Source: a virus. Taken from it: a DNA stretch of 64,000 bases. The translations under genes and the position numbers were made by a program. The stretch covers positions 1 through 64,000 of IMG/VR virus record IMGVR_UViG_3300025086_000015; one strand, written 5' to 3'. Position 1 is the stretch's first letter, and each line of letters opens with the position of its first letter. The notes beneath the pieces are model-generated. The model did not search any database. It worked only from the letters and a program-made list of their open reading frames with translations, and was not told the origin of the DNA. Positions 5,980 through 30,463 of this stretch are shown here, piece after piece.

Positions 5980-6393
5980 TTATTCTATAAGTTTTGATAA
6001 AGAAGAAATTTGTTGTGCTGTAATATTTTCTGGAAGCATTTCGTAAGTAATAGGTTCAACTGTTATTTCTATTTCATCTTCCAAAAGAACTGCTACTGCA
6101 TCTAACTGTGCTCTTCTTTCATCTATTAATTCTTTATTCTCTTTTTCTAATTTTTCAATTTCGTAAATTTTTGACTCGTCGTTAGGATCAGTAGTATAAG
6201 CGTTTACAGATAATGCTAAATCCATAAATTCTTTTGATGGCTTTCCTGCTTCTTCTACATCTTTTAACTCTTTAGTTATTGTTTCAAGATTTTTAGCAGC
6301 TGTTATAGCAAACTCTTTACCTTCTAAATCTTTTAACGTGAACAAACTGTTTACGATTTGAACAAATTCTCCTTTTGTTGTTTTAATTTTCAT
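5980..6393 (-). CDS. Acidic helical protein, possible fibre assembly chaperone
   Basis: 137 aa, follows a fibre-like gene; function inferred from position only. Confidence 0.55.
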   Translation of the reverse strand: MKIKTTKGEFVQIVNSLFTLKDLEGKEFAITAAKNLETITKELKDVEEAGKPSKEFMDLALSVNAYTTDPNDESKIYEIEKLEKENKELIDERRAQLDAVAVLLEDEIEITVEPITYEMLPENITAQQISSLSKLIE

Positions 6394-6416
6394 TTCTATA
6401 TATATTAGTTAAGTTG

Positions 6417-6424
6417 CAAATATA
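6417..6424 (-). promoter_or_regulatory. Bacteroidota sigma-A -7 element TATATTTG
   Basis: Matches TAnnTTTG in the intergenic gap upstream of 6393. Confidence 0.6.
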
Positions 6425-6440
6425 ATAAAATTTTTATATT

Positions 6441-7907
6441 TTAAGCAATTCTAAATATTGTTACCGCACTAGAGCCAGTTCTAGCTATTCTAAACTGTGC
6501 AGATCCACTCGCAATTGATGCGTCCGCTGTGTCAGGAGAAGAAATATGCATATTACCTACAAGAGTTACTCCTGTGTTTGTGGTTAAAGTTATATCTCTA
6601 TTTTCACTATCATCTCCAAGATTAATAAATACAAAATCAAATGCATCTCCATTAGCCTCTAACTTCAATCCGGATACTAGATTAGCTGCTGTATCTATTT
6701 GTTTACTATGATCAGATCCTGGATTTACAGTTATAATACCTGCTATAATACTACTGTGTGCTATTAAACTAGCGTCAGCACCTACATCAGTTGCAGATCC
6801 TTGATACTTTATTACTTGCGGATAAGCTGCTGCTCTCATATACACACCTTTAGTGCCAGATATTAAATTACAAGCTGTTGTAACATTTTGATTTGCATCA
6901 ATAGTTACTGCTGTTGTATTAGCAGTTTTAATTAATACAGATCCTGCTGTACCTGACCCTGAAGTACCTCCTGCTATAACAGCATTACCTCCTGCGTCAG
7001 AACCAGAAGAGTTACCTCCTGATACAGTTATAATACCTCCTGCTGCTGCAGCTCCACCTCCTGAAATTGTTGTTGCAACTCCATTTGTTCCACCTGTAGC
7101 AGCTACTGGAGCAATTGTTGGAGCAGTTGCTGAATCAAAAGCAATACCACCTTTTACGTTTAAAGTATCTGAATAAAAAGCTGTAGGTGTTGATTGTCCT
7201 ATATAAACCTTACCTGCAGCATCTACTGCAATACCTTCATCACTACCATCTCCACTAATCCAACTTTCTCCTGTAGCATAATCTAAATTTATATTATAAG
7301 TCGATGCTACAAGATTTGCTGCAAGAGTTGATAAATTAGCTGCAAGTGTAATTGCACCTGCTCCATTAGTAATAGTCATATTACTACCAGCTGTAAGTGT
7401 TGCTACTGACGGGTAACCATTAGTTGCATTACCTATAAGTAATTGTCCGTTTGTAGACATTGCTGTGCTAGACGCTAGAGTATCTTGAGCGCTAGCATAT
7501 AGTATAGATCCTTGAGCTATTGAAGATAATCCTGTTCCTCCATTTACCACATTATTTACTCCTGTTACAGATTGTGAAAAATCTAAAGAAGTTAAAAAAG
7601 CTGCTGTAGAATTATCACAGTTTGCTAGATTAATAGCAGATTCAACTAAAGTTAATACTAGGTTGTTCGATGCAGTTGTTACTGTCATCTTTGTATCTGC
7701 AGATATTAAACCTTTAAAATTTAATTGATTTGAGTTTGTTACACTAATAAATAAATCTTGACCTCCTACACCTGTAGTAGATAACGACGGAAACATACTC
7801 TGTATTAAAAACTTGTATTCTAATTGAGTTGTAGCATCTTCAATTTTTACATATTGATTTGCGGTTGTAGCTGTTTTTGCTAATGTGGTTAATCTTGATA
7901 TTGCCAT
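6441..7907 (-). CDS. Tail fibre/spike-like protein
   Basis: G/A/S/T-rich; NGGTG, GQLLIG and ITNGAGAIT motifs common in phage fibres. Confidence 0.7.
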   Translation of the reverse strand: MAISRLTTLAKTATTANQYVKIEDATTQLEYKFLIQSMFPSLSTTGVGGQDLFISVTNSNQLNFKGLISADTKMTVTTASNNLVLTLVESAINLANCDNSTAAFLTSLDFSQSVTGVNNVVNGGTGLSSIAQGSILYASAQDTLASSTAMSTNGQLLIGNATNGYPSVATLTAGSNMTITNGAGAITLAANLSTLAANLVASTYNINLDYATGESWISGDGSDEGIAVDAAGKVYIGQSTPTAFYSDTLNVKGGIAFDSATAPTIAPVAATGGTNGVATTISGGGAAAAGGIITVSGGNSSGSDAGGNAVIAGGTSGSGTAGSVLIKTANTTAVTIDANQNVTTACNLISGTKGVYMRAAAYPQVIKYQGSATDVGADASLIAHSSIIAGIITVNPGSDHSKQIDTAANLVSGLKLEANGDAFDFVFINLGDDSENRDITLTTNTGVTLVGNMHISSPDTADASIASGSAQFRIARTGSSAVTIFRIA

Positions 7908-27466: not shown

Positions 27467-27729
27467 TTACCTAATATTTGATGTTCATTAATTAGTAAGT
27501 AATTTTTTCCGTCAATAGGAGCTTTTACAGCTTCTGTTCTAGGATCAATCATTACAGTATCGCCTTTTTTTACAAAATGACACTGATCTCCCGCAGCAAT
27601 TACTTTTAAAACATTAGATTTTTTAGCGTTAGACTTAGCCGTTTCTTCATCTAAGATGATTCCAGATTTTGTTTCAGTTACTATTGGATCAGGCACTACT
27701 ATCCAACTTCCGTGTGGTTTAAATTTCAT
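27460..27729 (-). CDS. groES: GroES-like co-chaperonin
   Basis: KPHGSWIVV, TKSGIIL mobile loop, VIAAG, VKKGDTV, YLLINEHQILG. Confidence 0.9.
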   Translation of the reverse strand: MKFKPHGSWIVVPDPIVTETKSGIILDEETAKSNAKKSNVLKVIAAGDQCHFVKKGDTVMIDPRTEAVKAPIDGKNYLLINEHQILGKW

Positions 27730-27749
27730 AATATATATTTTTGTTTGGG

Positions 27750-27782
27750 CAAAGATATAAATTATTATTTTATAAAAACAAA
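27750..27782 (-). promoter_or_regulatory. Bacteroidota sigma-A promoter of the late operon (TTTG-N21-TATCTTTG)
   Basis: Both -33 and -7 elements with consensus spacing, 20 nt upstream of groES. Confidence 0.75.
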
Positions 27783-27812
27783 TCTTTTGTAGTATTTTTC
27801 AAGTGGATATAG

Positions 27813-28042
27813 TTATCCCCCTTGGAGTCTCTTTTTCAAACTTGGATTTTACTCTAGCAGTGCTTCTCAAAAAGAGACCAAAGGATAGTAAGACTGATGT
27901 TAATTCACCGCACATACCTGTGTGCAATCTATCCTAACTAGAGTTTATACACTCGTTCTTTTCCAACTACCGGAGAAAATCTCACTCTTATTTAGAGTTA
28001 CCAATCCGATGTCTAATCCCTTTTATGGTTACCGGGGGATGA
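27813..28042. ncRNA. Candidate ~230-nt structured non-coding element
   Basis: Terminal ATCCCCC/GGGGGAT; GTCTCTTTTT/AAAAAGAGAC; AGGATAG/CTATCCT; GCACA/TGTGC; pseudoknot-compatible ACTCTAG/CTAGAGT. Confidence 0.5.
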
Positions 28043-28054
28043 TATTGTTGGACT

Positions 28055-28067
28055 GCAAAGATATAAA
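28055..28067 (-). promoter_or_regulatory. Second leftward -7 element (TTTATATCTTTGC)
   Basis: 13-nt exact copy of 27749-27761. Confidence 0.65.
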
Positions 28068-28227
28068 AAGTTTAATAAAAAAAATAAAATAACTAAAAAA
28101 TTTTTTTTGGGGTTTATTTGTGAGCGTACGGACCTCCTCAAAACAACACCCCGTCTTGTAATAGGGTTTGCAAGCACCCCCTATTAAAGCCAAAAGATGG
28201 CTTTAATTTAATTAAATACTTAATCAA

Positions 28228-28434
28228 ATGGCACAAACTTATGACAAGAATGGTAAGTGGTCTAAGACCACAACATTCACAACACCTTCGGGTTGGCACA
28301 TCAGCACTTCGTTATCTCACACTAAAGGTGAGACTGATGTTAAAAAGTCTCAAGACTTTACTAAACTTGATGAATTACCAGAGGAAATTCAACAAGGCAT
28401 CATGGATGGTACTCTTTCAATAAAATTGAAATAG
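28228..28434 (+). CDS. First rightward (early) hypothetical protein
   Basis: A-rich leader; followed directly by a terminator. Confidence 0.7.
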   Translation: MAQTYDKNGKWSKTTTFTTPSGWHISTSLSHTKGETDVKKSQDFTKLDELPEEIQQGIMDGTLSIKLK

Positions 28435-28438
28435 CACT

Positions 28439-28460
28439 AAAGGGACTTTGTCCCTTTTTT
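28439..28460 (+). terminator. Intrinsic terminator
   Basis: AAAGGGAC-TTT-GTCCCTTTTTT. Confidence 0.75.
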
Positions 28461-28580
28461 AATATATATGGTAGTAATCAATTTGTAGTTGTGAGTGTGG
28501 CTTCGTGGTCACATTCACTACTATTTCCACCATTTATACAATCAATCAAATCGTTAACATTATAATAATATAACACTAAC

Positions 28581-28700
28581 ATGAAAACACTACTTATATT
28601 ACTATTAGTAGCAGTATTCTTTGGCAGCTGCGCATCAACTTGCCAATATTCTAATAGTCATTCATATAAAATGAGAAATAATTGTGCAGCATATAGATAG
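28581..28700 (+). CDS. 39-aa lipoprotein (MKTLLILLLVAVFFGSCASTCQYSNSHSYKMRNNCAAYR)
   Basis: Type II signal peptide with FGS-C lipobox; below ORF-track cutoff. Confidence 0.7.
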   Translation: MKTLLILLLVAVFFGSCASTCQYSNSHSYKMRNNCAAYR

Positions 28701-28710
28701 TACAAAACAT

Positions 28711-28799
28711 AAATAACAAGGTTTATGATGTGAAATTCATCTCGTGGCCTCTTGACCAATCAGCCGTTAAATGCGGTAATAGATAGAGACTTGTTATTT
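28711..28799 (+). ncRNA. Structured RNA module A
   Basis: 10-bp closing stem AAATAACAAG/CTTGTTATTT enclosing three short hairpins. Confidence 0.5.
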
Positions 28800-28803
28800 T
28801 TAT

Positions 28804-28880
28804 TAGAAAGCATAAACATTAAATTGGGTATGAACATGGAGGTAGACACTATGCAGGTGTTCACATGTTCTAACTTTCTA
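28804..28880 (+). ncRNA. Structured RNA module B
   Basis: TAGAAAG/CTTTCTA, GAACATG/CATGTTC, GACAC/GTGTT; loop TATGC complementary to upstream GCATA. Confidence 0.5.
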
Positions 28881-28887
28881 TATACAT

Positions 28888-28963
28888 AAATAAAGAATAG
28901 TAGAACGTCTTGGATAACAACCTGCAGTGGTAAACCGTAAGGCATGTGGACTATTCTTTATTT
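28888..28963 (+). ncRNA. Structured RNA module C
   Basis: Perfect 14-bp closing stem AAATAAAGAATAGT/ACTATTCTTTATTT. Confidence 0.5.
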
Positions 28964-28964
28964 T

Positions 28965-29865
28965 AAAATACAGTTGTAAGGTATTTATAGATAAACCTTG
29001 TTTTCTAGATAAACAAAACTAATCTTGACACTGATTGACTTGCAAGCAATCACCTATCTGGTTTAAAGAAGAAACTTTGATTTCATTCTTTACCGTGGAT
29101 TTAAAATGGTAAACGTGTCCTAAAATATGGATGTGTGTCCATACTGATGATTCCAAAAGGATGAATTTAGAAAGATTTTGGGGCTTAACCCGATAAGTAT
29201 AGTAATATACTTAAAGACATAGTGTGGAATCTATGTTGCCAGCAATGGTCAATTTAAGCAAGCAGGATACTACACGGCACCAATGGACAAATGTCTGAGG
29301 GTATGTGTATCGCTTCTATTTTAGTTGGAGTGATGAGCTAGTGATAGCAATAGGAAATAACTGTAGATTTAGTTTTGAGTTAACTGTCGAGTTAATAAAG
29401 AGTATAAATCAGTATGATGGGCAATCTTAGGGAATAAGATATAACCTGAAATACCATAACGATGAAAAGTTATACTTGAGTAGTTTAGTATTTTGTCTCT
29501 CAAAAGGAGGCGAAACTAATGAATAACCGCTACTTGAACCATAAATAATAACAATATTTATACAACTAAAAAAGAACAAGTGTTGTTCCGTTAAACATTG
29601 AAAGATGACTAAGTCTGAACACGTATGCGTATGTGAATTCAGTTGCATTGATCCCTCAAGGTGATATGTATTTCAAGTGAAAGTCAGGTATGGGCCCTAG
29701 AACCCATCACCTCGTATGAGTAGTTTGTGAGTAAATGTTTATTGTTAAGAGTGGTTAGCTATACTAACCGTCATTACACAATACTATTGGAGACGATAGT
29801 GGATACGTTGCTAACTCATAAGGCAACAAAAGATGTGTACTATTAGCTATAATCTCAGGCTATAT
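28965..29865 (+). ncRNA. GOLLD-like giant structured RNA (~900 nt)
   Basis: No credible ORF; long-range TACAGTT(28969)/AACTGTA(29359); many hairpins; elements recalled from GOLLD RNAs (GAGTAG...CTCAAAAGG, hairpin-GTGGATA-stem-AAAGA, terminal TAGC-TATAATCTCAG-GCTA). Not confirmed with a covariance model. Confidence 0.7.
29118..29172 (+). ncRNA. Type III hammerhead ribozyme, variant core (U15.1-A16.1, AAA cleavage triplet)
   Basis: Stem III CTAAA/TTTAG; stem I TATGGA-TGTGTG-TCCATA; CTGATGA at 29144-29150; stem II T-TCC-AAAA-GGA-T; GAA at 29163-29165. Confidence 0.75.
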
Positions 29866-29891
29866 TTTATTAACCTTTTAATCTAAATACT

Positions 29892-30029
29892 ATGAACAAC
29901 AAGAAATTACTCAAGAATATAACTTGGGAGCTCAAAAGAGCTGAAAAATATTGTACAATATCAATGATACTAAATGTATTATTTATATTAATAATAGCAA
30001 TACAAGCAATTCAATTATATATTAACTAA
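29892..30029 (+). CDS. 45-aa membrane protein
   Basis: Hand-translated; C-terminal hydrophobic helix; CTAAATACT leader. Confidence 0.5.
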   Translation: MNNKKLLKNITWELKRAEKYCTISMILNVLFILIIAIQAIQLYIN

Positions 30030-30169
30030 ATACTAAATAAACATGGAAACAGATCAAAGAATTTTGAAAAAGAATTTAGAGATAACTAAACTATCTCAAC
30101 AAGTAGATAAACTAACATCAGAGTTAGTTAATCTAAAAGAAGAGTATAAACAATTAAAAAACAACACTC

Positions 30170-30463
30170 ATGAAGAAGAAAGATGAAGTATGGTACTGTG
30201 AAAACAGTAAGGGACAAAAGATTCCACCTTATAAAAGTACTTATATTGTACCTAAACCTAAGAAATGGACATTTGAACGTATCTTAAATAGAATAGGTGT
30301 TGTCATTGGCATAGCTATGCTTGTAGCTATTGCATTTAGCTTGACATCTTGCGGGTCATTAAAAATGACTGAGAAAGATAAACAAGTAAATTATGAAATT
30401 GAGAAGTTATATATTAAATATACTTATCAAAGAGATTCAATACTAATCGAGAATTATAAATAA
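30170..30463 (+). CDS. Membrane/lipoprotein-like early protein
   Basis: Hydrophobic helix ending LTSCGS. Confidence 0.65.
   Translation: MKKKDEVWYCENSKGQKIPPYKSTYIVPKPKKWTFERILNRIGVVIGIAMLVAIAFSLTSCGSLKMTEKDKQVNYEIEKLYIKYTYQRDSILIENYK

Follow-up and report, generated by a model that had tools for sequence, protein, structure and literature searches.

The window analyzed here is a stretch of 64,000 nucleotides, positions 1 to 64,000 of the 75,869-base IMG/VR virus record IMGVR_UViG_3300025086_000015. On its plus strand, an upstream block, a type III hammerhead with a variant core and a full GOLLD RNA (29180-29861) follow one another (Table 1). The hammerhead ends 7 nt upstream of the GOLLD RNA. 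The score of the GOLLD 3' domain exceeded the gathering threshold of RF02032, and GOLLD was the only Rfam family found in the window at gathering threshold. The best phage matches of the family A DNA polymerase of the record were crAss-like phages at 26-31% identity. The description of this DNA as crAss-like in the original prediction therefore held at a coarse level only. The GOLLD neighbor of the hammerhead had gone unnoticed in that prediction.

Table 1. Features of the locus in window coordinates
Feature	Position	Strand	Basis
Upstream block common to other hammerhead-bearing phage contigs; promoter/leader candidate	28957..29092	+	blastn, 75% identity over 140 nt to L082; alignment A3
Whole type III hammerhead, variant core U15.1-A16.1 and U10.1·U11.1	29118..29172	+	sequence; model R2 match 29117-29173
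Stem III 5' strand (16.7-16.1), UCCUAAA	29118..29124	+	A29124 is position 16.1
Predicted cleavage site, between A29125 (N17) and U29126 (1.1)	29125..29126	+	predicted from alignment to hammerhead consensus
Stem I, 6 bp (UAUGGA/UCCAUA), with loop I UGUGUG	29126..29143	+	29126-29131 pairs with 29138-29143; loop 29132-29137
Core C3-A9, CUGAUGA	29144..29150	+	sequence; columns invariant in A2, A4 and A7
Stem II, U29151·U29162 and 3 bp (UCC/GGA), loop II AAAA	29151..29162	+	29152-29154 pairs with 29159-29161; loop 29155-29158
Core G12 A13 A14, GAA	29163..29165	+	sequence; R2 alignment
Stem III 3' strand, UUUAGAA	29166..29172	+	U29166 is position 15.1
GOLLD 5' domain, ~300 nt	29180..29475	+	82% identity to L012 over 303 nt; similarity to 7 loci starts at GGGG 29180
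GOLLD 3' domain (Rfam RF02032)	29476..29861	+	222.4 bits against gathering 150; model positions 1-416

All elements of a type III hammerhead were found on the plus strand at 29118-29172, and the coordinates given for them in the original prediction were right throughout. Three helices surround the core, loops close stems I and II, and stem III is open. The conserved core positions C3 U4 G5 A6 N7 G8 A9 and G12 A13 A14 were all present. Position 17 is A29125 and hence not G. Two positions departed from the consensus. The A15.1-U16.1 pair, which gives the NUH triplet, was absent; U29166 pairs with A29124 instead, which makes AAA the cleavage triplet. The basal position of stem II is U29151·U29162 in place of G10.1-C11.1. 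Stem III of the window copy is weak. It has five contiguous pairs (29120-29124 with 29166-29170), four of which are A-U, followed by a C29119·A29171 mismatch and the pair U29118-A29172.

Both core deviations were published in 2011 and alone are no discovery. The class as published admits an exception to A15.1-U16.1, because a natural U15.1-A16.1 hammerhead was reported that "self-cleaves, albeit less efficiently" (Perreault et al. 2011, PLoS Comput Biol, PMC3088659, section 8). The loss of efficiency was put down to the missing A15.1-G5 contact, and the activity was described as "low, but detectable". In the same paper, U10.1-U11.1 was reported to occur naturally and to support more activity than other mismatches. 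The caveat in the original prediction that such variants may already be reported was thus correct. Our literature search found no other paper that mentions U15.1 together with hammerheads.

Folding energy was calculated for the isolated element. The 55-mer gave a z value of -1.26, 20 of 200 shuffles folded as well, and its MFE fold was different from the hammerhead fold. For the 57-mer, ViennaRNA preferred a non-hammerhead fold (-10.3 kcal/mol) to the hammerhead fold (-4.9 kcal/mol). A similar energy gap favoring a non-hammerhead fold was obtained for L049 and L082, which are canonical and AT-rich. Both the predicted alternative fold and the weakness of the AU-rich stem III count against efficient cleavage, and the canonical AT-rich relatives are similar in this respect. 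Fold energy was not used as support for the hammerhead.

The Rfam hammerhead models gave no match at E ≤ 10 in 28700-30100, which agreed with the expectation that strict pattern searches would miss the element. The window copy did not reach the RF00008 gathering score of 48.5 bits. In the same region, matches to FopS, GibS, SNORD87 and rdlD in E-value mode were far below their thresholds and were treated as chance. A blastn search with 28900-29900 against the phage collection found nothing. Two canonical relatives aligned to RF00008 in the type III register with 34.8 and 30.3 bits, below gathering. Among seven small hammerhead loci searched, only two gave any Rfam hammerhead match, and none of 20 hammerhead loci matched Rfam at gathering score. 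Since the subfamily scores below the Rfam hammerhead threshold, standard annotation misses it.

Relatives were collected with the 22-mer at 29144-29165, which runs from C3 to A14 and includes stem-loop II. Exact copies were present in 52 IMG/VR contigs and in 26 contigs of GTDB species genomes. Nearly all of the viral copies were canonical type III hammerheads with GAAA and with NUH triplets, for example GUA. These canonical copies had a 6-bp stem I of varying sequence, loop I UGNGUR and a fixed stem II. Most viral copies were closely followed by a ribosome-binding site and a start codon, and a hairpin often came before them. Two to six family hammerheads were found within a few kb in L047, L050, L084, L072, L046, L074, L095 and others, in line with the clustering of phage hammerheads reported in 2011. 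In addition, 22 of the 26 GTDB contigs (L139-L164) were Patescibacteria/CPR MAGs, 15 of these being Saccharibacteria or Saccharimonadales. L052 (4029-4085, minus strand) and L162, which have an identical sequence, combined the same core and stem II with a type I arrangement when read by eye. In these two loci, stem III is hairpin-closed, stem I is open and the GUA triplet lies downstream; the R2 match was partial, with 33.1 bits.

The covariance model R2 was built from alignment A4, which contains 35 canonical A15.1-U16.1 sequences and leaves out the window and all U15.1 copies. R2 scored the window with 67.7 bits (E 1.7e-18 in 123.6 kb). The match was full length (model positions 1-57), and it was the only R2 match in the whole record. 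Thus, homology to the canonical members was found by a model that excluded the query. This confirmed, at the level of homology, that 29118-29172 truly belongs with a widespread family of phage hammerheads. The type III order of CUGAUGA, GAA and three stems, as originally described, was borne out by this homology to bona fide type III hammerheads.

The structure of the family was examined using 41 distinct members. The hammerhead structure was 84.4% paired, and stem I reached 98.4%. Changes on both sides were observed for 13 of 17 pairs. The covariation score was 0.669 compared with 0.06-0.12 for the slid structure, and 0 of 500 shuffles reached it. Strong covariation was found in stems I and III. 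All six stem I pairs showed changes on both sides, among the 41 members and also among the 22 variants described below. Loop I positions 1 and 2 were invariant in A4 and A7, and both loops, for which a loop I-loop II contact had been suggested, were conserved across the family. Core columns C3-A9 were invariant in A2, A4 and A7 but belonged to the search pattern, and the invariance of stem II in these alignments follows from the search pattern and is not evidence. U·U at 10.1-11.1 was present in all pattern-fetched sequences. Relatives found by R2 had G-C, A·A or U·U at this position, with covarying stem II sequences. The U·U pair of the original prediction was therefore correct, yet a family trait and not peculiar to the window copy. 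On the sequences compared, the family is one of phage and Patescibacteria-type contigs, in which stem I has 6 bp, loop I reads UGNGUR, stem II carries U10.1·U11.1 and is capped by AAAA, and stem III is open.

The composition of the alignments was as follows. A2 omits L052 (type I topology) and L094 (contains N), with L057 and L072 cut by contig ends. L083, which has a 7-nt loop I, is misaligned by one column in A2 and accounts for the single "other" cell at 16.1-15.1. Beyond the A2 exclusions, A4 and R2 omit the window, L058, L095, L083, L054 and L060. A7 consists of the window and 21 distinct metagenome sequences that passed an ungapped test (stem I at least 5/6 pairs, stem III at least 4/5). 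L101/L116, whose loop I has 5 nt, and L119, whose stem I is unclear, are not in A7.

Sequences with the variant pair were searched using a pattern with the same motif, any loop II and non-A at 15.1. In the IMG/VR scan, all three contigs found (L058, L094 and L095) carried U15.1 together with A16.1. In L094 and L095, the copies precede a protein gene, and their stem I, loop II and stem III are not those of the window; both contigs have one U15.1-A16.1 copy alongside canonical copies. The metagenome scan gave 42 loci, of which 27 passed the ungapped hammerhead test and two more had a 5-nt loop I. U15.1 occurred with A16.1 in 29/29 of these. The remaining loci were L119, whose stem I was ambiguous, and 12 without stem I, which look like unrelated matches. 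In GTDB, 24 of 26 loci passed the hammerhead test, and the swap was present in six of the 24. The U15.1-A16.1 form with stem III UCGCUA/UAGCGA was frequent among the GTDB contigs L139-L164. No single-sided change at 15.1 or 16.1 was found among hammerhead-like sequences from IMG/VR, the metagenomes, GTDB and the R2 matches. The original prediction had called the 15.1-16.1 change (A29124-U29166) compensatory, and the presence of A16.1 in every non-A 15.1 hammerhead of the IMG/VR and metagenome scans agreed with this.

The 22 distinct U15.1-A16.1 sequences, the window included, maintained their stems. Stem I was 99.2% paired and stem III 87.7%. Twelve of 17 pairs changed on both sides, and the covariation score was 0.700 compared with 0.07-0.11 for the slid structure. 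The pairs 16.1-16.5/15.1-15.5 were formed in 21-22 of the 22 sequences, with compensatory changes in four of these five pairs. The rest of the core, whose bases were part of the search pattern, was intact in all 22. The window and L058 have stem I in common and show a compensatory exchange at 15.2-16.2 (U-A vs A-U). Position 17 was A in 19 of the variants, U in two and G in one. The variant with G was L112 (5783-5839, minus strand), whose stems were otherwise intact. G at position 17 is usually held to block hammerhead cleavage. Because the stems of 22 distinct variants were kept through compensatory changes, the variant fold is under selection. As read from the alignment, this conservation pattern marks a fold that is maintained and functional rather than decaying. 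These results indicated that the U15.1-A16.1 inversion is a recurrent natural subclass of hammerheads, with at least 22 distinct sequences and with the triplet AAA in the window copy.

We also compared the DNA upstream of the hammerhead. About 100-140 nt of it resembled the DNA upstream of hammerheads in L082, L058, L049 and L063 (alignment A3), the matching blocks being 8778-8905 in L082 and about 5924-6020 in L058. This block contains CTTGACACTGA-like and ACTTTGA...ATTTA...GTAAAG-like stretches and may be a promoter or operator region. A sigma-70 scan of 27600-30200 gave 10 sites compared with 11.9 expected, none of them convincingly placed before the hammerhead, and a by-eye fit of the Bacteroidota -33/-7 promoter to the shared block failed. 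Judged from these alignments, the shared unit is the upstream block plus the hammerhead, with varying downstream cargo. In L058, the closest relative, the ribozyme is followed by ~380 nt (6078-6460) without an ORF of at least 50 aa. A hairpin-rich part of this region, which terminates in a T-run near 6244-6250, may be a small RNA cargo; no Rfam match was found in L058 at gathering.

The relationship of the hammerhead to the GOLLD RNA was examined in homologous loci. The GOLLD 5'-domain pattern fetched 28 loci, and 17 distinct rows were compared. Only seven of these (L002, L009, L012, L017, L018, L020 and L027) show the GOLLD 5' start; the other ten resemble unrelated or coding matches and were set aside. 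In all seven, similarity of the 5' domain began at 29180, and the DNA upstream was unrelated. L012 has an ORF stop codon followed by a terminator-like hairpin upstream of the GOLLD start. In L009 and L002, the upstream DNA has a tRNA-like 3' end. The ~300-nt 5' domain of the window is common to L012, L027, L018, L009 and L002. The consensus fold of six 5' domains was self-contained, with compensatory changes in 37 of 87 pairs, and within it ~29360-29364 pairs with ~29275-29279 inside the conserved 5' domain. The region 29118-29172 was not conserved in homologous GOLLD 5' domains. With model R1 (E ≤ 1), no hammerhead was found in the 40 loci that GOLLD patterns had fetched, and blastn found no GOLLD similarity in 96 hammerhead loci. 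The original prediction had proposed core conservation in homologous loci as a check. This was true of the hammerhead homologues, which keep the core fully, but the GOLLD-homologous loci are without the element altogether. Because the similarity of the seven homologues starts at 29180 and the consensus fold of the 5' domain is self-contained, the hammerhead is, on this comparison, not part of the GOLLD fold. The juxtaposition of hammerhead and GOLLD is so far unique to this record. Among other GOLLD-bearing phage loci, L003, L008, L011 and L004 have tmRNA genes ~1-3 kb from GOLLD, and in L004 a group I intron lies beside or inside the tmRNA match.

Marine RNA-library contigs, which show neither strand nor RNA ends and may reflect DNA carry-over, matched the locus in four runs from at most three samples. 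One contig of 647 nt, identical to the window, spans 29149-29794. It starts inside the hammerhead, 31 nt before 29180, crosses the GOLLD 5' domain and ends within the 3' domain. Other RNA-library contigs reach 29860. In these runs, no contig aligned to 28400-29148 or past 29860, and such a lack of cover is not informative by itself. Around the core, ~43 nt are the same in the window and its L058-type relatives, and such identity can break assembly graphs there. For these reasons, the start of the contig at 29149 does not indicate that an RNA 5' end lies near 29126.

Based on the above results, we think it likely that the element is a type III hammerhead of the natural U15.1-A16.1 subclass, placed 7 nt before GOLLD, which cleaves a leader off the GOLLD transcript. 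Homology, structure-preserving selection and the position relative to GOLLD are grounded in the present data; catalysis, co-transcription and a role in 5'-end formation are what we infer. Transcription from upstream would run through the hammerhead into GOLLD. The hammerhead would then cut the RNA at the A29125/U29126 junction, probably at a lower rate than canonical cores do. Cleavage would free a leader or upstream RNA ending in a 2',3'-cyclic phosphate. The remaining GOLLD RNA would start with a 5'-OH and carry a 47-nt hammerhead remnant and the 7-nt spacer. Judging from its sequence and placement, the hammerhead probably trims the GOLLD leader.

Other explanations were weighed against this reading. 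The element could be an inactive relic of hammerhead descent: the swap would have killed catalysis, and the remainder would survive only as a stable structure in the leader or simply not have decayed so far. No pair of the class is more conserved than A15.1-U16.1, activity falls at least 10-fold on mutation of 15.1 and 16.1, and inactive examples were among the natural core variants assayed (PMC3088659). The weak AU-rich stem III, an alternative fold predicted to be 5.4 kcal/mol more stable and the lack of an Rfam match point in the same direction. However, every other core base and both stems are kept in the 22 distinct U15.1-A16.1 sequences through many compensatory changes. The swap was always double, no single-sided hammerhead-like sequence appeared in the scans, and a natural U15.1-A16.1 hammerhead does self-cleave (PMC3088659). 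A relic is thus unlikely in our view.

The hammerhead-like fold could also be built into the GOLLD 5' domain as an internal module. The long-range stem closing it would form between 28969-75 and 29359-65, two 7-mers that are perfectly complementary in the window. In the part of PMC12286853 available to us, published 5' regions are variable, and the ~420 nt of env-38 would reach back to ~29055 here. This explanation was considered very improbable: the seven homologous 5' domains resemble the window only from 29180, and L012, which is 82% identical downstream, has the ORF stop codon and the terminator-like hairpin directly upstream. The six-domain consensus gives ~29360-29364 a partner at ~29275-29279 and not at 28969-28975, and the hammerhead and the upstream block recur in contigs without GOLLD. 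A chance origin of the hammerhead-like sequence in AT-rich non-coding DNA would agree with the shortness of the core motifs (7 nt and 3 nt), with a fold energy no better than that of shuffles (z -1.26) and with the absence of an Rfam match. It was refuted by the recurrence of the exact 22-mer in 52 viral and 26 genomic contigs and by the 67.7 bits (E about 1e-18) obtained with a model that excluded the window, and it retains a negligible probability. The view that the compensatory change argues against chance was upheld by the same two results.

The preferred reading, a leader-cleaving hammerhead of the U15.1-A16.1 subclass, can be taken further, although we put forward the following extension only tentatively and with some doubt. 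The inversion may define a selected, rate-tuned or condition-dependent subclass with dozens of distinct natural members in phages and Patescibacteria-type genomes, rather than a crippled form, and the window copy may mature the GOLLD nanocage RNA of a crAss-like marine phage with a 5'-OH end. If true, a ribozyme-made 5' end would be known for a giant ornate RNA for the first time. A hammerhead directly 5' of GOLLD gives a testable idea for how the 5' end of this one GOLLD is formed, and it predicts a defined 5' end for constructs of this GOLLD. As a single hammerhead-GOLLD case, it says little about GOLLD biology in general. The subclass itself, which is sizeable and common in phage and Patescibacteria-type contigs, argues for the "essential" A15.1-U16.1 pair being replaceable in vivo, and its natural sequences form a series in which one can ask what makes up for the loss of the A15.1-G5 contact. 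New here are how large and how conserved the subclass is, that Rfam thresholds hide it, and the one case of a hammerhead-GOLLD arrangement.

We compared the locus with published systems. In the available part of Kretsch et al. 2025 (PMC12286853), GOLLD is described as having a separate, less conserved 5' domain, which in env-38 comprises residues 1-420 of 833, and GOLLDs are described near tRNAs. The window agreed with this description in having a 3' domain and a separate, less conserved 5' domain. It differed from the GOLLDs described there in the hammerhead directly upstream. In addition, no tRNA was found anywhere in the window, unlike many GOLLD loci. The 5' domain of the window was also shorter than that of env-38 (~300 vs 420 nt). 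PMC5737381, in the portion accessible to us, treats GOLLD and the hammerhead without linking them.

The element shares an open stem III, the CUGAUGA...GAA core and H17 with phage type III hammerheads (RF00008, Hammerhead_3; PMC3088659). As in those hammerheads, its family occupies intergenic phage DNA, and one contig often has several copies. In the sections of PMC3088659 seen by us, gene-flanking phage hammerheads were proposed to process long transcripts. The window copy differs from phage type III hammerheads in U15.1-A16.1 and U10.1·U11.1, and the whole subfamily differs from RF00008 in staying below gathering (30-35 bits vs 48.5). The review literature, as far as it was accessible, has rewritten the NUH cleavage-triplet rule as NHH. 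The subclass agrees with this rule of Eckstein and coworkers in that A at 16.1 can be cleaved if 15.1 is changed to match; the ribozymes there were engineered, trans-cleaving and minimal. The natural core variants of PMC3088659 (section 8, Figure 5) show the identical two deviations. That paper speaks of "a sequence", whereas the swap here belongs to a subclass of at least 22 distinct sequences.
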